Part shown: positions 1,216 to 39,454 of the stretch, piece after piece
Numbering within the stretch: the stretch's first letter is position 1
Layout: each line of letters begins with the position of its first letter
IMG/VR virus record: IMGVR_UViG_3300028797_000113
Length of the DNA: 43,810 bases
Strand: one strand, 5' to 3'
DNA from: a virus
Lineage: Duplodnaviria; Heunggongvirae; Uroviricota; Caudoviricetes
Notes under the pieces: model-generated
Told to the model about the DNA's origin: nothing
What the model saw: the letters and a program-made list of their open reading frames with translations, nothing else
The model's database searches: none
Position numbers and translations under genes: made by a program

Positions 1216-3627
1216 TTAAATTTCTTTAAATTCCTGAGATAAAATATAATTTTCGTTGCCAACCGCATATCCATATTTTACATATGGTGTAGCGTGATTT
1301 GATAATTCTATTTTTACATTTCTTAAAAACCATGTGCTTTTATTGGTGCTTGCAGGTTTATCAAAAGGTTGTACACCCAAAGTCAAGTTCCCATACTGTT
1401 GCCATCCCGTTGGGATTTCCCAAGTCATAACGGCTCTTTTGGGACCACCAGAATATTGTAAATAATTGGTAAATGGATATGTTGTTTGGGAAGTCCCAGA
1501 AGCATTAATACCAGTCATAGAACCGTGTATACCAAATCTAACATAATTATATGCGGTTTGACCCATTTCATCTGAGTATCTATCTCCCTCTGCACTTACA
1601 TCATAAGATAGCGTAAGAGACTCTCCAACATGTGCAGTAATAAATTCTGCTGGAATACTGGTATAGCCAGTCTTCTTCACACTGCTACTATATGTGACCA
1701 CACAATCTATGTTATTATCTAAAAGATTCGGATTGACTTGTTTCCCTATCTGAAAATCTCTATCAATTAAATCGTTTTCAATAATATTGGAAAACGAAGT
1801 TACGCCACCTTTATTTATATCTAAATTACTATCACTCTCTGAAATTTCATAGCAATAATAATTTTTCTTATTATCTACTGAAGCAGAAACTTGATACAAT
1901 GCTTTTATGTCGTCTGCCGACAATGCAGTTGCATAAATTCTTACGTCTGAAATATCTCCAACATATAAAGAAGTTTCCATTCCAGTCGCTGATGCTTCTG
2001 CCGCAATACATAAATAATTAGACGCATACTGTATTACACTTGTGGAAGAAACCGAAGCCGTAGACTCTAATTCTCCGTCAATATATAATTTCACACTAAT
2101 GCCGTCAAAAGTACCAGTAATCAAATGCCAATCATTTAAAATTTGAGCCACCGTCGTTGTAGACTCTTGAGACACATAACCTGTTCCATTTACATAAACG
2201 TAAAAAAGAATGCCATTAGTCCCTTGTTTAATACTCCATCCGCCACTCTGAGTACAACTAATAGGTCTATCCCAAGTGGAACATTTTACCCATAAACTAA
2301 CAGTAATTGCATCTTTAGGAAGATAATTATTGACCGTTTGTTGACCTATAAGATATTGGTTTTTTATAAAATGCATACAATTACTATTTCTCACACTACC
2401 ATCCGTAATAGTAGGACTACCTACTGCCGTCGAATGATTATTATATCCACTGGTATCATAGATGGTTGTATCATTTACATCTGCCATAGATAAAGTGTAA
2501 GGTGTGGTTTTATCCCCAGCCTCAATCTTTATCTTGCGAATACTAATATCACCATTTTGGACTAACTGAAACGAAAATTGCGTATAAGAATAAACTGCCC
2601 CACTGGTGTATATTTGCATCATATGTGCTTGTGAAAAGAACTTTGATATTCTTGTCCATTTTCCACTTTCCACATTTGATAAGTCCCAAGTGGGTTCTAT
2701 CCAACCTATTCTTGTACCATTCTCTTGGTAGATTTGCAATGCCCCCAGACATTTATGATTTATTGCAGACACGTCAGGTGTGTATAAATCAAAAGAAACT
2801 GTAACACCATTAGGGTAGTTATTTCCGTCTACTCTCAAAGTAGGAATAAGCCTCTGCCAATTGTTCGTGGTTGCACCAGTTCTGCTATAACTGTACATAT
2901 ACGAACCATCATCTGATACACTTTTAGTCCAACCATTTGCGGCTGTCCAACCAGTAAAATCAAGGCTATTATCAACCATATTAGGCACACCCATACCGTT
3001 ATTATTAAGCGGATAGTGTACAACAAGGCCTTTTGCAAGTTCTTTGATTTCTTTTACAGAAAGAGCGTGATCGTAGATACGTAAATCATTCATACTACCT
3101 TTATAATCAACTATTGTGCCACTTCTGTAATCGTCACCTACTCTTATTTTGGCAGTTGATGTTCGTGTACTAAACCCACCACTTTGAGTGTGGGTATATA
3201 TCAGAGTTCCATTAACATAGAATTTAGCTTGTTCTGCTGTTTTTGTAATCACAACATGACTCCACTGATTTACAGGAAGCGTATTAGTCGGTTGAATATC
3301 AGGGGAACCATTCCACCATAACCTTATTCTTAAAGTTGCGGTCAATTCAAAAGAAACATTACCCGAACCAGCCGCACTATATTCAGAAATAATTATTCCT
3401 CTTTTAGCTTCAGTAGGCTTTAACCACACGGCATAAGAAAAATCATTATTATAAAATGGTCCCAATGCCTTATCAAACTCAAGATATTGCTCATTACCAC
3501 TAAAGGCATAGCATTTTCCTAATTTGCCTGCATTGTCAACCGTTGCACCATTGTTTGTGACTGTTAAATCTTCAAGACCGTTATTCCTTAAATCGCCACA
3601 AAGAGGTAGCCATACTCTTAAACTCAT
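1216..3627 (-). CDS. Receptor-binding/tail protein with two LamG (concanavalin A-like) domains and two carbohydrate-binding-like modules
   Basis: LamG signatures VWLPL/VHYPL, WSHVVITK..AKFYVNG, WHLITGTFDG..VKLYIDG, and the terminal motifs NDLRIYDHALS and SDVRIYATALS. CBM-like endings KIKIEAGDKTTPY and NVKIELSNHATPY. RBS AGGAGG. Confidence 0.8.
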   Translation of the reverse strand: MSLRVWLPLCGDLRNNGLEDLTVTNNGATVDNAGKLGKCYAFSGNEQYLEFDKALGPFYNNDFSYAVWLKPTEAKRGIIISEYSAAGSGNVSFELTATLRIRLWWNGSPDIQPTNTLPVNQWSHVVITKTAEQAKFYVNGTLIYTHTQSGGFSTRTSTAKIRVGDDYRSGTIVDYKGSMNDLRIYDHALSVKEIKELAKGLVVHYPLNNNGMGVPNMVDNSLDFTGWTAANGWTKSVSDDGSYMYSYSRTGATTNNWQRLIPTLRVDGNNYPNGVTVSFDLYTPDVSAINHKCLGALQIYQENGTRIGWIEPTWDLSNVESGKWTRISKFFSQAHMMQIYTSGAVYSYTQFSFQLVQNGDISIRKIKIEAGDKTTPYTLSMADVNDTTIYDTSGYNNHSTAVGSPTITDGSVRNSNCMHFIKNQYLIGQQTVNNYLPKDAITVSLWVKCSTWDRPISCTQSGGWSIKQGTNGILFYVYVNGTGYVSQESTTTVAQILNDWHLITGTFDGISVKLYIDGELESTASVSSTSVIQYASNYLCIAAEASATGMETSLYVGDISDVRIYATALSADDIKALYQVSASVDNKKNYYCYEISESDSNLDINKGGVTSFSNIIENDLIDRDFQIGKQVNPNLLDNNIDCVVTYSSSVKKTGYTSIPAEFITAHVGESLTLSYDVSAEGDRYSDEMGQTAYNYVRFGIHGSMTGINASGTSQTTYPFTNYLQYSGGPKRAVMTWEIPTGWQQYGNLTLGVQPFDKPASTNKSTWFLRNVKIELSNHATPYVKYGYAVGNENYILSQEFKEI

Positions 3628-20766: not shown

Positions 20767-21264
20767 TTATAGTACGTTATATTGTTCCGCGTTCGCCAAG
20801 ATAATTGCCTTATGCAAAATCGGTTCTGGGGAAGACGCGATTTGTCGTTGTCGTTCTTCAATAATTTCGATAGGAGAAGGTTTCGTAATACGATAAGGAG
20901 CCGACGGTCTGAAATCAAGCTGATTCCAAGCATCCAAACCGTGAAAACCTTCCTCCATGACCAGTTCGAAAATAAATTCTGTACTTCCTCTGTAAATATC
21001 ATCCATGTAGTCGGGAGACAGAATTATTCCACCAGTAAATGTTCTATCGTGGTTGTTTTTATAATATTTTTTGAAACTCTTTTTTTCGAAATTGTAATAA
21101 TGCCTGTGGTATTCAATAGGTTCATAATCATTATAAAACGCTTCTACCGCTTCATATGCGGTTCGTGCTAAATCTTCGCGCGTTTCAATTGCCGCATATC
21201 TGGAAACATTGGCGGCATATTTAACCACGTCTTTTTTGAGTTCATCAAAAATATCATTAGCCAT
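20767..21264 (-). CDS. Hypothetical virion/tail-completion protein (165 aa)
   Basis: Start moved from the ORF-track 21324, which lies inside the tRNA-like RNA, to MANDIF (21264) with RBS AAAGGAGA. FYNDYEPIEYHR motif; directly precedes the TMP. Confidence 0.6.
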   Translation of the reverse strand: MANDIFDELKKDVVKYAANVSRYAAIETREDLARTAYEAVEAFYNDYEPIEYHRHYYNFEKKSFKKYYKNNHDRTFTGGIILSPDYMDDIYRGSTEFIFELVMEEGFHGLDAWNQLDFRPSAPYRITKPSPIEIIEERQRQIASSPEPILHKAIILANAEQYNVL

Positions 21265-21295
21265 AATTCTTTCTCCTTTCTTGTAAAATTTAAAA

Positions 21296-21409
21296 TTGCG
21301 TGGGCGAGGATTTACACCTCGCATGATTTAACAGCGCATCATTCTCACACTCATTACGGCGAGCCACCTACTGTGTTTTGTTAGCGTCTACTTATTCCGC
21401 CACCACGCC
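21296..21409 (-). ncRNA. tRNA-like RNA with a 45-nt insert replacing the anticodon loop
   Basis: Minus strand GGCGTGG TG GCGG-AATAAGTAG-ACGC TAACA [45 nt] TGTTA AATCAT GCGAGG-TGTAAAT-CCTCGC CCACGC AA. It has a Leu/Ser-type D arm, a 6-bp T stem with a 7-nt loop, a 6-bp acceptor stem and no CCA. Confidence 0.75.
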
Positions 21410-21417
21410 AGAGAGCA

Positions 21418-22032
21418 TTACTCCTGAGATGCTCCCACAAATTGTTTAATTGAACTCGCTAAGCCTTTTTTCTCTTCTTCGGGCACAATTTCTTTCATAA
21501 CGGCAGCAGTCTCTGCAAACGTCCTAACTGCCTTATCTACTAACTCAGAAATGTAAGCCCGGCTCGACGAGTGTTCATCGTGCCACGTATCAAGCACTCT
21601 GTTATTTACGAGAATGAGTTCGTTAATTTCTCTTTCTCCAATTAAATCACAGAACACACTGATAATGTCATATTGCTGGAACTGGTCATATAGCCCTATT
21701 ACATCCTGTCTTTTCTTAGTGATAGGTTGTCCCTTGTCATCCAACTTAACATTGCCGTTCTCGTCTTTGACTTCATCAATAGCGATGTCAAGTTGCAAAT
21801 CCGTATAAAGACAAACGATGGCCCAAGTAAAATTAATTTTGTTGGCGATCATATCAATGTATGAAATACCATTGTCTCCAACCTTTACACAACCATACAC
21901 GAATCTCGTAAGTACGGCATTCTTCTCCCCGATGGGAGCATACGTCTTAATTAAATGCTTTTGACACCAGTCCTTTTGAGCTTCGGGCTTATGAAGATTA
22001 TTAAAGCCCTGTACAAATTCGCTTACTAACAT
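21418..22032 (-). CDS. Hypothetical protein (possible tail assembly chaperone)
   Basis: Acidic helical 204 aa, good RBS GAAGGAG, upstream of the TMP; function inferred only from position. Confidence 0.45.
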   Translation of the reverse strand: MLVSEFVQGFNNLHKPEAQKDWCQKHLIKTYAPIGEKNAVLTRFVYGCVKVGDNGISYIDMIANKINFTWAIVCLYTDLQLDIAIDEVKDENGNVKLDDKGQPITKKRQDVIGLYDQFQQYDIISVFCDLIGEREINELILVNNRVLDTWHDEHSSSRAYISELVDKAVRTFAETAAVMKEIVPEEEKKGLASSIKQFVGASQE

Positions 22033-24070: not shown

Positions 24071-24085
24071 TACCTAAAGCAACTC

Positions 24086-24110
24086 AAAAGCCAGACATTG
24101 CATCTGGCTT
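24086..24110 (-). terminator. Probable intrinsic terminator after the endolysin
   Basis: AAGCCAGAT-GCAAT-GTCTGGCTT followed by further T residues on the minus strand. Confidence 0.6.
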
Positions 24111-24125
24111 AAGGCTGCATATTCA

Positions 24126-24962
24126 TTATTTTGTTAAAGCGCTCCATGTCTTCGGGCCTACTATTCCGTCTTTTTGGAGTTTGACACCGTTGGCGTCGAC
24201 ATTTTCACTCTGGAATTTTTCGACCGCAGCTTTGGTTTTCGGACCGAATTTACCGTCCACTTTCCCGCAATTATATCCCTTCTCGTTAAGGATAGACTGA
24301 AGAAGTTTTACATATTCACCAGTCGAACCTTTTTGCAATGTAGGATATTTCTTCTGAGGCGCAGGCTGTGCCGAATTAGGCGCCTTGTCTCCGTAACAAA
24401 TATCCATATCAACGACAGAAACAATACCATTGACTCTGCCTTTACTGGAATACTGCCACATAAACGGATCATATTTGCCTTTACTTGTTGCATAATAAGC
24501 CAGCCACAAAGGATATTCAGACACGTCGTTGAATTTATTCTTGAGATAATCGGGGTTGGCATAAATGCCTACGTTGTAACCGTAGCCACTCATAGTCTCA
24601 AGGAATTTCTTAACCCATGCCGTTCTCTGTGCTTTACTCAGACCGGGTTTATATTTATCAGAATCGTATTCCCAATCAGCCCAGACCTTTAAATTAATCT
24701 TGCTTCTGTAGGGTTCGATAGTTTCCTGACATTTCTTTGCGTTGAGAATAATGTCATTCTCGTTTTTCGCATATAAGAACCAGTAAACACCGATGCCAAG
24801 TCCCTGAGATATTGCGCCTTCGATATACGTTCTGAACATAGGATCGACATTTGTCTTTCCCCAGCCCGCTCTGATAATTACAAAAGTAACACCATCTGCC
24901 TTGACTTTTGCCCAGTCAATCTTGCCTTGGTAATTACTTACGTCAATGCCTTTAGATTCCAT
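24126..24962 (-). CDS. Endolysin: GH25 muramidase plus a C-terminal peptidoglycan-binding (PG_binding_1) domain
   Basis: GIDVSNYQGKIDW, VWADWEY, WQYSSKG (GH25); TLQKGSTGEYVKLLQ...DGKFGPKT...DGIVGPKTW (PGBD). Confidence 0.93.
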   Translation of the reverse strand: MESKGIDVSNYQGKIDWAKVKADGVTFVIIRAGWGKTNVDPMFRTYIEGAISQGLGIGVYWFLYAKNENDIILNAKKCQETIEPYRSKINLKVWADWEYDSDKYKPGLSKAQRTAWVKKFLETMSGYGYNVGIYANPDYLKNKFNDVSEYPLWLAYYATSKGKYDPFMWQYSSKGRVNGIVSVVDMDICYGDKAPNSAQPAPQKKYPTLQKGSTGEYVKLLQSILNEKGYNCGKVDGKFGPKTKAAVEKFQSENVDANGVKLQKDGIVGPKTWSALTK

Positions 24963-36330: not shown

Positions 36331-36544
36331 TAATTTTTTTATTAAAGACCCGACGTGGTCCGCATCGTTGAGAGGCGTGTCGGGTACGTATCAAAATTGG
36401 ACTCGACTTTGACGAATGCTTACGCAGTTATGGATTTCACATAAGGATTAAATATGAAAGCATTTTATTTTAACGCAGACTCGGCGGGATTTTCCCTTCT
36501 CCCCACAGTGTTGACTATACAGACTTTGCCTCGGTTACCAACCA
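36331..36544 (-). ncRNA. Candidate structured RNA in the terL-portal spacer
   Basis: No credible ORF. Stems ACCCGAC/GTCGGGT (36348-36385) with inner CGC/GCG, AATGCTT/AAGCATT (36415-36464) with an inner TTCATAT/ATGTGAA hairpin, and GGGA/TCCC. Confidence 0.45.
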
Positions 36545-38296: not shown

Positions 38297-39353
38297 CTAA
38301 CTTCCCAAACATCTTTTCAAATAATTCCTCATTGATTTCATCGTCTTCATACTCAGGCTTAGTAACCGTGTACTTTTGCATAAACCTGTCATATGAGGCG
38401 CTGAAAGCGTTTTTAAGTCCCATCATTTTTGCCAGATGTCCTTTAAAGAACACGTCAATAAGTTTTCCTATTCCATCAACGTCCCTAAATTCTTCTGACG
38501 GCTCAGCTATGGGTCTGGTATGCTCCCACACTTCAATCATTTGAGAAAATGTATTCGAATCTGTAAAAGCGTTGGAGGCATTTTGTGACGGCTTTAACTG
38601 AGCAGAACCCAACAACTCTTGAAGAGTTTTATCCAGTTCCTTTGTGTCCTTTCCGTCTTTCTGTGCCTTGTCAATTTCCAACTCTTTAAAACAAATACGC
38701 TTGAACAACAGTTCCTGAGCTTTGCTGTCGCAGGCATATCTGGCTGTCCAATCCTCGTATTCAGTTTCCAAAAATAAAAGGTCGACATTAGTGTAGTCTC
38801 TGCCAAATCTTTTCCGGGCTTTTCTAAGAAGTTCTTCGTTTTCTTCGAGTTCTTCTTCGTCAAGTTCGGTTGTAGTTATGGAAGAGCCAAAATCACTGTC
38901 GGCCCATGTCTTATCTTGCCACTGCTTGAGTGACATAATAGACGTTATATAAGTGGCGAAGGGGGAGTTTCGAGTCTTCTCTTTAACTCCATCCATCGCG
39001 CCCTTAACACATTGTTCATAAAAAGCATCGTCGTAAGGACGATTCAACATCTGAAGAACCTTCTGAACGCTCTCTTTGGTTTCATTGGGTTCATCTCTGT
39101 CTTTCTGTCTTTGTTCCACCATCTTCAAAAGACATTCCTTGCAGACCGGGTATTTCATTGTAACAAAGCGATTGTCATTATAAAATGACGTTTCGCGTTT
39201 TTTAAACTCCCCGCACTTGGGGCAAAGCACTATGTCCTTGTCAAGAATGGCGTTATAACTGTCGGCGACTTTGGTGTACTCTTCCGAAAGAGTAGTTATA
39301 CCCCGCTTCGCCTTTATCTCCTGAATGTCAGGAGCATACATTAAACTTGCCAT
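38289..39353 (-). CDS. Probable terminase small subunit with a Zn ribbon
   Basis: Overlaps the terL start; CPKC...CKEC; helical acidic C-half (RICFKELEIDKAQ...ELDKTLQELLG). Confidence 0.65.
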   Translation of the reverse strand: MASLMYAPDIQEIKAKRGITTLSEEYTKVADSYNAILDKDIVLCPKCGEFKKRETSFYNDNRFVTMKYPVCKECLLKMVEQRQKDRDEPNETKESVQKVLQMLNRPYDDAFYEQCVKGAMDGVKEKTRNSPFATYITSIMSLKQWQDKTWADSDFGSSITTTELDEEELEENEELLRKARKRFGRDYTNVDLLFLETEYEDWTARYACDSKAQELLFKRICFKELEIDKAQKDGKDTKELDKTLQELLGSAQLKPSQNASNAFTDSNTFSQMIEVWEHTRPIAEPSEEFRDVDGIGKLIDVFFKGHLAKMMGLKNAFSASYDRFMQKYTVTKPEYEDDEINEELFEKMFGKLDE

Positions 39354-39379: not shown

Positions 39380-39454
39380 GCGCGTAGACGGGATTTGAAC
39401 CCGCGACACATCCATTACTAATGGACCGCTCCTGCCGAACTGAGCTACTACGCT
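39380..39454 (-). tRNA. tRNA-Thr(AGT)-like gene with a non-canonical acceptor end
   Basis: AGCGTAG TA GCTC-AGTTCGGCAG-GAGC G GTCCA-TTAGTAA-TGGAT GTGTC GCGGG-TTCAAAT-CCCGT CTACGCG C. Full cloverleaf with anticodon AGT (39417-39419), A1:G72 mismatch, C73, no encoded CCA. Confidence 0.8.

Follow-up and report, generated by a model that had tools for sequence, protein, structure and literature searches.

Molecules that mimic transfer RNA (tRNA) have been described from RNA viruses, eukaryotic long non-coding RNAs, organelles, and bacterial Y RNAs. In plant mitochondrial t-elements, MALAT1 mascRNA and mitochondrial tRNA punctuation, cuts made by RNase P and RNase Z set the ends of the neighbouring RNAs. 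Phage T4 possesses species 1 and 2 (rnaC/rnaD), which are stable RNAs of a tRNA cluster, have tRNA-like ends, and are co-transcribed and co-processed with the tRNAs. Furthermore, the YrlA-type Y RNAs (RF02553) are non-coding tRNA mimics with D-arm and T-arm tertiary features and are found with Ro60/Rsr (Chen et al. 2014, PMC4201824). In the present study, a tRNA-like element was analyzed in a stretch of 43,810 nucleotides (nt) from a tailed phage (IMG/VR record IMGVR_UViG_3300028797_000113), where it occupied positions 21296-21409 of the minus strand; the whole stretch is called the window below. The element is a member of a large and apparently undescribed RNA family of Bacillota phages. No bacterial-phage family of tRNA-like processing signals was described in Rfam 15 or in the literature searched. 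No literature description of the present family was found either, and it may be among the 10,006 candidate viral RNAs catalogued in 2023 (PMC10690425).

The spacer RNA of 114 nt had the fold of a tRNA "top half", in which a structured insert replaced the anticodon arm (Table 1). Compared with the bacterial class II tRNA-Leu, the element shared the acceptor stem of 7 base pairs (bp), the G53:C61-type pairs, and a hairpin at the position of the variable arm followed by A-U before the T stem. As in many tRNA genes of Bacillota, CCA was not encoded, and a U-rich trailer followed the A at position 73. Its U8-G9 and D arm matched those of L025, a genuine tRNA-Leu(UAA) that bears the family form GCGG-AAUAGGUAG-ACGC, except for one D-loop base (A21392, where the family has G). 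The element differed from class II tRNA-Leu in having no anticodon arm or anticodon and a T stem of 6 bp, which made a 13-bp stack, and position 1 was often U or A in the family. The T loop was also different, reading UGCAAAU (G55) in the family and UGUAAAU in the window element, with U21314 where the family has C. In the acceptor stem, G21409 (position 1) stood opposite A21297 as a G-A mismatch, and the remaining six pairs were Watson-Crick; the first pair of the orthologue L122 was G:C, so that all seven positions were paired. The T-arm side read CAU-GCGAGG-UGUAAAU-CCUCGC, in agreement with the family pattern of YAU, a 6-bp stem, and a UG(C/U)AAAU loop. The size of the insert was 59-61 nt, where 61 nt is the partition counting the U-A that follows the D arm and the A-U that precedes the T stem (57 nt without both). 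The minimum-energy fold of the window sequence retained the acceptor, D, and T arms, and its energy, compared as a z score, was unremarkable (z = -1.2); therefore, the case rests on comparative data. All the sequence features listed in an initial annotation of this DNA (the acceptor stem, the D and T arms, UAACA/UGUUA, ACAC/GUGU, GGUG/CGCC, and AUGAU/AUCAU) were found on the minus strand.

A canonical tRNA (RF00005) was rejected because the element had no anticodon arm with a 7-nt loop but a pseudoknotted insert instead, and neither ARAGORN nor RF00005 matched it. Transfer-messenger RNA (tmRNA, RF00023) was rejected as well, since the third acceptor pair was a Watson-Crick C:G, the D arm was intact, and RF00023 gave no match. 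These results were in agreement with the earlier view that the RNA cannot decode and is neither a tmRNA nor an intron, as G3:U70 and an anticodon arm were both absent. The ARAGORN and Rfam checks proposed at that time gave no call and no characterized family. ARAGORN found only a tRNA-Thr elsewhere in the window, and Rfam 15 showed no match on the window element at gathering scores or at E <= 10, including RF00005. Moreover, none of 166 family elements was called as a tRNA by ARAGORN, and no Rfam family covered the element in eight family loci and five further loci, with the exception of the L121 orthologue.

The other known systems were less similar in their topology or setting. Like the members of this family, YrlA occurs in both bacteria and phages and is at times located among tRNA genes. 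However, the acceptor end is closed in YrlA, which opens instead into the Ro60-binding stem, whereas the ends of the window element lie at the acceptor stem; in addition, the family had no RF02553 match and was largely unlinked to TROVE/DUF2828. The t-elements and mascRNA (PMC8457004) are also tRNA-shaped, non-decoding elements embedded in a longer transcript, but they are eukaryotic or organellar, and for the window element processing is predicted. The likeness to T4 species 1 and 2 is by description only (phage-encoded small RNAs), and the host phylum differs.

The family was collected by two pattern scans of IMG/VR contigs, one with a 21-nt D-arm pattern and the other with an independent T-arm pattern specifying no D-arm letters. 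The D-arm scan yielded at least 113 viral loci. Among the matches listed, only two overlapped ARAGORN tRNA calls, one of them a genuine tRNA-Leu, and the complete architecture was present in 96 of 115 parsed elements, with the window's own element and its paralogue counted in. The T-arm scan gave at least 105 further loci, about 90 of which had the same D arm or a close variant; the matches listed included the compensated D-stem variants GCGG/ACGC, GUGG/ACAC, and ACGG/ACGU. Together, the scans provided at least 172 distinct elements of one architecture, mostly in IMG/VR contigs. The shared plan consisted of a 7-bp closing stem, UG, a Leu-type D arm, the insert, YAU, a 6-bp T stem, and a UGCAAAU loop. 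Across these elements, the acceptor pairs 1-6 showed all four Watson-Crick types, pair 7 was G:C, and the T-stem pairs 2-4 covaried. The insert ranged from 23 to 202 nt (median 71), CCA was essentially never encoded, and position 73 was A in 58%. Position 74 was U in 56% of the family, compared with 31% U in the flanks.

In an alignment of 44 elements with differing acceptor stems, 98.2% of the cells were paired, as against 73% in shuffled controls and about 37% when the partners were slid; the 98.2% is partly circular, because the parser demanded that most stem positions pair, and the recovery rate from pattern-only matches is not circular. Double changes numbered 181 against 49. Thus, compensatory changes were seen in the family stems when pair counts were set against shuffles, and covariation had been among the checks proposed for this RNA. 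The shortest members, with a linker and a single hairpin abutting the AU-T stem, look like a class II tRNA variable arm with the anticodon arm deleted. About 20 loci (e.g., L021, L027, L028, L057, L062, L097, and L101) carried a hairpin of 34-93 nt inside the T loop, with the form UGA-CUAUACGAG...CUCGU-CAAAU, and the start of this insertion was itself conserved.

The membership of the window element was examined with a covariance model, R1, built from those 44 elements without the window element, its paralogues, and its orthologues. R1 matched the window at 21296-21409 (minus strand) from end to end, with 73.6 bits and E = 1.2e-16. The other family members scored 43-79 bits, and the genuine tRNA-Leu L025 scored 47 bits. 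The window element is accordingly a member, because a model built without it scored it at its exact coordinates. Two additional R1 matches in the window were rejected; the match at 24082-24178 (E 0.03) overlapped a terminator hairpin and was not tRNA-like, and that at 38394-38485 (E 0.21) was inside a gene. In the phage's own genome (129,668 bp), a second D-arm copy was found in a tRNA cluster at C1:5471-5645 (L002:1495-1669, R1 51.8 bits). In this paralogue, the acceptor read GCAUAG/CUAUGC and the T stem covaried; the insert was far longer and contained a second T-arm-like hairpin, GGGG-UUCGAGU-CCCC. A non-canonical tRNA-Leu-like element with a 7-bp stem, a 10-nt loop, and a long variable arm was also present at C1:5318-5417 (L002:1342-1441, R1 37.5 bits). 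The same cluster also held a tRNA-Asn, a CUA suppressor tRNA, and a tRNA-Gln.

The elbow had earlier been described as altered on both sides. The base changes themselves were confirmed, and the elbow pair was kept as A:U. The D-loop AAG went together with the T-loop UGU in four of five AAG members, whereas UGU occurred in only 3 of 166 AGG members. By comparison of the members, the co-occurring D-loop G to A and T-loop C to U changes are a compensatory G:C to A:U exchange that preserves the elbow pair. The window element and L122 are related and were counted once, so that the independent elbow exchanges number about three. This covariation supports a formed elbow.

The insert of the window element was homologous to that of a subfamily comprising L008, L029, L037, L074, and L083. 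In the subfamily inserts, ACAG paired with CUGU, and by this homology the long-range helix of the window element is ACAG/CUGU, where UAACA/UGUUA had been proposed initially. A second helix of 4 bp, which ends immediately ahead of the T stem, covaried in the subfamily (GACC/GGUC, GUCC/GGAU, GGCC/GGCU, and AGUC/GGCU), and compensatory changes were seen in three of the four pairs of this helix b in the subfamily alignment. Its counterpart in the window is AUGAU/AUCAU, shifted by one base. Since both helices were conserved and one covaried in the nearest relatives, with the strand order a-b-a'-b', the alignments indicate that the two helices coexist as a pseudoknot. The initial proposal that AUGAU/AUCAU competes with the long-range helix was therefore not supported.

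Conservation between close relatives was consistent with a constraint on the spacer. The non-coding segment 21265-21417 (153 nt) showed no substitution in five contigs from other samples, which mostly represent one sister lineage and equal roughly one comparison, not five. Four of these contigs were about 96% identical across the full 1266 nt with 47-52 mismatches, 33-38 of them in the upstream gene and 13-14 in the downstream gene. The fifth, shorter contig covered 692 nt and had 25 mismatches (6 and 19, respectively). The average rate predicts about six changes within 21265-21417. In addition, the contigs of three metagenome runs agreed with the unchanged spacer. As judged from these alignments, the element and its spacer are under selection.

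The downstream gene encodes a protein of 165 amino acids (aa), homologues of which were found at 73%, 54%, and 44% identity (L122, L120, and L121, respectively; Table 1). In each case, a tRNA-like element stood directly before a conserved leader common to the orthologous loci, AAGAAAGGAGAAAG..UUAUG, and this leader was almost identical across them. In L121, the anticodon stem was weak and position 37 was a pyrimidine. The inserts at the orthologous slots were unrelated to each other. The slot has kept a tRNA shape while the ability to decode faded or was replaced, and the retention of the shape in synteny argues for selection on shape at that place. The comparison points to descent from a phage tRNA-Leu gene. 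Hence, a tRNA-like element was kept in the slot down to 44% identity, and it was on conservation in related phages that the initial annotation had let its proposal depend. At two of these loci, a terminator-like hairpin with a U run abutted the 5' end of the tRNA-like element (L121:2286-2384 and L120:1350-1380), and L121 had a perfect TTGACA-17-TAATAT promoter upstream of this hairpin.

The T-arm scan of bacterial genomes gave 120 matches, 30 of which had the full architecture. The named taxa were all Bacillota (among them Bacillus, Heyndrickxia, Exiguobacterium, Pediococcus, Weissella, Lactiplantibacillus, Lachnospiraceae, and Clostridia), together with a few metagenome bins. The other 90 lacked the rest of the architecture and were rejected as chance matches. 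Among cultured phages, members were found in SPP1, phi3T, and Leuconostoc phages (Table 1), in many unrelated Lactobacillus plantarum phages, and in phages of Enterococcus, Listeria, Weissella, and Lacticaseibacillus. The members in SPP1, phi3T, and the Leuconostoc, Lactobacillus, Enterococcus, and Listeria phages had no RNA annotation in GenBank, and a few cultured-phage matches fell under coding sequences called "hypothetical protein". A re-annotation of SPP1 in 2018 nowhere mentioned tRNA (PMC6316719).

The sites of the family were diverse. For the small temperate phages, about 25 of 101 immediate upstream genes matched PHROG transcription-regulation families (activator/regulator and Alt-like activator), and the downstream genes were often an HNH endonuclease or the small terminase. 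The SPP1 member preceded the scaffold gene. The tie to the tape measure cistrons suggested initially did not extend to the family, as its sites included tRNA clusters, positions before terS or HNH genes, positions after late activators, and the position before the SPP1 scaffold gene. A ribosome-binding site (RBS) and a start codon were present within 70 nt downstream of 39 of the 166 elements whose flanks were long enough for this count.

Several other RNA features were observed near the members. Unrelated L. plantarum phages (Lenus, Satyr, LpeD, Sha1, phiJL-1, ATCC 8014-B2, and others) had an identical 27-nt 3' part, which consisted of the T loop, both 3' strands (T stem and acceptor stem), and the trailer, and their inserts differed widely. 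This points to exchange between phages or to a host-specific constraint on the acceptor sequence. Directly after the SPP1 member, at L352:1614-1665 (X89721 about 3541-3592), a stem ACGGAC/GUCCGU, with the T-arm-like hairpin GCGGG-UUCAAUU-CCCGG inside it, preceded a U run; this second small element could be a tRNA minihelix or a terminator. Orphan RNA motifs were also found, including a drum RNA about 115 nt downstream of the L008 element (L008:3449-3554), a ROOL RNA in the L020 tRNA cluster (L020:4042-4646), and a DUF3800-VIII RNA in phi3T (L353:2862-2927). The phi3T slot behind yonO-yonN (HU-like) held a family member, where the window has a tRNA-Thr after its HU-like gene. At the start of the SPbeta YonO late operon, Forrest et al. 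2017 (PMC5467207) described a non-coding RNA that lacks annotation. R1 gave no match in the SPbeta region of about 1.2 kb without annotated genes after yonN (L354, NC_001884 59641-60833); consequently, that RNA could not be equated with a family member.

Within the window, the stop codon TAA of the upstream gene (21420-21418) was 8 nt 5' of the element. The AGGAG motif began 18 nt past the element end, close to the 20 nt estimated earlier, and the ATG (21264) was 31 nt past it. The minus strand carried, in order, an 864-aa gene (phrog_8308), an HU-like gene, and a tRNA-Thr; the terminase, portal, and head genes; a GH25 endolysin gene and a terminator; and a RusA-like gene, a family 2 glycosyltransferase gene, two unassigned genes, and the element. 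The 165-aa gene, the tape measure gene, and the tail genes came after it. This gene order places the element at a module boundary. The earlier placement in the tail operon was likewise correct, since the element directly precedes the gene before the tape measure protein (PF10145 in relatives). PHROGs and Pfam gave no function for the two flanking genes. The region had no BLAST match in cultured phages, and locus searches with single proteins gave no match in viral contigs. No promoter or terminator match was found between the upstream stop and the downstream start, and the scan overall was no richer than shuffles. The element is presumably transcribed within the operon RNA, with neither space nor signal for its own promoter or terminator. 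In one metatranscriptome run, two read-length contigs covered 20992-21269, outside the element.

Further signals were located on the minus strand of the window. A terminator-like hairpin, AGCCAGA...UCUGGCU with a U run, followed the GH25 endolysin gene at 24090-24120, and it probably marks the start of the element's transcription unit. A match to the Rfam abiF RNA motif (39.6 bits; gathering score 37) was found at 36348-36384, between the large terminase and portal genes. The genuine tRNA-Thr(AGU) was at 39380-39454, right behind the HU-like gene, which itself lies behind the 864-aa gene.

Taken from its anatomy and context, the element may well be a non-decoding RNA derived from tRNA-Leu that is excised by RNase P and RNase Z, a reading on which our confidence is evenly balanced. 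Among the options of the initial annotation (a messenger RNA (mRNA) processing signal for RNase P/Z, a decoy, or a regulatory switch), the processing signal is the most likely. The host tRNA end-processing enzymes would recognize the top half, namely the acceptor/T stack, the D arm, and the D/T elbow. RNase P would cleave on the 5' side, and RNase Z would cleave past the discriminator A, ahead of the U-rich trailer. The operon RNA would be split at the boundary between the RusA/glycosyltransferase block and the tail block, and the tail mRNA would keep a short leader, whose Shine-Dalgarno sequence is strong and conserved. Excision would also free a compact and stable RNA of about 114 nt, whose variable insert may be functional in itself.

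Every member retained the acceptor/T stack and the D/T elbow, and the rest varied. The retained part is what the end-processing enzymes read, and the variable part is what they ignore. Moreover, for a site inside an operon without its own promoter or terminator, with no CCA and with a U-rich trailer, excision by RNase P and RNase Z is the simplest account. Pellegrini et al. reportedly found, in 2003 and 2012, that a U-rich trailer is of the type seen in the CCA-less tRNA precursors cut by Bacillus subtilis RNase Z. The context also fits a tRNA-type gene, since the neighbouring genes were co-directional with the family elements and a genuine tRNA lay within 600 nt on the same strand for 46 of the 166 elements and on the opposite strand for 1. 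Several points weigh against this account. Position 1 was mostly U or A in the family and was mismatched in the window element, and it was not the G1 preferred by RNase P. The acceptor/T stack was 13 bp (7+6), not 12. The hairpin in the T loop of about 20 members, at the corner of the elbow, would hinder enzymes that stack on it. An intrinsic terminator, and not a gene, followed within 90 nt in 26 of the 166 members, so that not all members can serve to define the end of a downstream mRNA. Furthermore, the Leu-type D-arm bases are conserved beyond the need of a mere processing signal.

Processing and a role in trans are not mutually exclusive. The freed RNA might, as the leading alternative, be a tRNA mimic that works through its top half or its insert on a protein of the host or the phage; it could serve as a decoy or sponge for enzymes or defence nucleases that target tRNA acceptor ends or elbows, or as a stabilizing tRNA-type scaffold that displays an exchangeable insert. 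This agrees with a conserved scaffold whose inserts were swapped even among close relatives (the window element and L122 had identical arms and different inserts) and with the structured inserts and their covarying pseudoknot stems. Many members were located in tRNA clusters or ended at terminators, like free-standing RNA genes, and unrelated phages of one host species shared the 27-nt 3' part. However, neighbour clustering gave no recurring partner protein family near the element, and we consider this role rather unlikely. It is possible, though doubtful, that the tRNA-Leu top half (the 7+6 stack with G55) serves as a processing-competent, nuclease-resistant scaffold for interchangeable cargo, which would act in trans on tRNA enzymes or tRNA-directed defence, and that mRNA punctuation is a by-product. 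The cargo would stand where the anticodon arm is missing and, at times, within the T loop, which would resemble the laboratory tRNA-scaffold trick. A more specific partner would be the phage's Ro60-like DUF2828 protein, bound as by a Y RNA. In the phage's own genome, a DUF2828 gene at C1:3532-4323 lies a short way upstream of the tRNA cluster with the paralogue, and YrlA-type Y RNAs mimic tRNA (PMC4201824). Against this, DUF2828 occurred in only 3 and TROVE in 1 of 50 carrier records, and neither was present in any of the 19 carrier records at least 90% complete. The DUF2828 gene was 68 kb from the window element, RF02553 did not match the element, the sole RF02553 match in the eight family loci (E 0.059) was off the element, and the topology was not permuted. 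The DUF2828/Ro60 link is not a family property, and such a partnership is quite improbable.

The remaining explanations had still less in their favour. A tRNA-Leu pseudogene in decay, functionless and kept by linkage, would be in line with the L121 slot, which is still called tRNA-Leu(AAG), and with the armless 72-nt form of L120, both of which suggest an ancestry from a real tRNA. It is very hard to reconcile with no spacer substitutions where the flanks showed 3-6%, with compensatory changes throughout the family that affect every stem as well as the elbow pair, and with derived features (G55, the 6-bp T stem, and YAU) common to more than 170 elements in distant phages; hence, we regard it as highly improbable. 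The element might instead be a leucine-accepting, non-ribosomal tRNA, to which CCA is added and which is charged by leucyl-tRNA synthetase, with the 13-bp stack keeping EF-Tu off. The Leu-type D arm was kept, the conserved A-U before the T stem could form A15:U48, and position 73 was A in the window element and all three orthologues. This enzyme is said to be independent of the anticodon arm, as reportedly found by Larkin et al. in 2002. Nevertheless, position 73 was A in little more than half of the family, as given above, and charging may be blocked by the 7+6 stack, by the mismatch in the first pair, and by G55. To our knowledge, no use for such a tRNA is known in phages, and we hold this explanation to be very unlikely. 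An attenuator or riboswitch controlling the tape measure cistrons in cis could be imagined from the position of the element 18 nt upstream of a conserved RBS and from the hairpin directly before it in L120 and L121. The regulatory switch suggested initially was based on two competing helices, and this basis was lost, as both helices were conserved, one covaried, and they coexist in the pseudoknot. The predicted fold left the RBS free of sequestering pairs, and the members were found in a wide range of unrelated settings, some of them at transcription-unit ends, which makes a switch scarcely probable.

Table 1. Parts of the window element, its neighbouring genes, and related elements (window positions unless a locus is named)
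Feature	Position	Strand	Basis or R1 score
Acceptor stem, 5' strand GGCGUGG	21403-21409	-	Window sequence and R1 alignment
U8-G9 and tRNA-Leu-type D arm, GCGG / AAUAAGUAG / ACGC	21384-21402	-	Sequence, family comparison
Variable insert in place of the anticodon arm	21323-21383	-	Sequence, subfamily alignment
Insert stem a, ACAG with CUGU	21374-21371 with 21334-21331	-	Sequence, subfamily alignment
Insert stem b, AUGAU with AUCAU	21342-21338 with 21327-21323	-	Sequence, subfamily alignment
Insert inner hairpin, GGUG with CGCC	21368-21365 with 21361-21358	-	Sequence
T arm, 6-bp stem GCGAGG/CCUCGC and loop UGUAAAU	21304-21322	-	Sequence, family alignment
Acceptor 3' strand CCACGCA and A at the discriminator position	21296-21303	-	Sequence
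Upstream gene, 204 aa, function unassigned	21418-22032	-	Open reading frame (ORF) list, PHROGs/Pfam
Leader of the downstream gene: U-rich trailer, AGGAG 21277-21273, ATG 21264-21262	21262-21295	-	Sequence, orthologous loci
Downstream gene, 165 aa, directly ahead of the tape measure gene	20767-21264	-	ORF list
Tape measure gene, 3623 aa	9883-20754	-	ORF list; PF10145 in the giant ORF of relatives
L122 (73% protein identity): same arms, first pair fully paired, unrelated longer insert			68.5 bits
L120 (54% protein identity): 72-nt form, canonical UUCGAGU loop, 20-nt linker			28.9 bits
L121 (44% protein identity): ARAGORN tRNA-Leu(AAG), RF00005 39.7 bits			42.7 bits
Bacillus phage SPP1 member	Between head genes 9 and 11, X89721 3423-3532		78.8 bits
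phi3T member	Right after yonN, L353:1499-1634		59.8 bits
Leuconostoc phages (LN34 and others), member	Between HNH gene and cos end		

In summary, at least 172 anticodon-less tRNA-Leu mimics were present in ordinary phages of Bacillota; they are apparently undescribed, and Rfam 15 has no model for them. The family reaches the genetically tractable B. subtilis phages SPP1 and phi3T, as well as dairy phages of Leuconostoc and Lactobacillus, and conditional RNase P and RNase Z strains of B. subtilis exist. If the element is processed as proposed, it would represent a tRNA-type punctuation of phage operons and would account for the "empty" spacers where modules meet. Should the insert prove to be a functional cargo, the family would represent a new class of phage-host RNA interactions.

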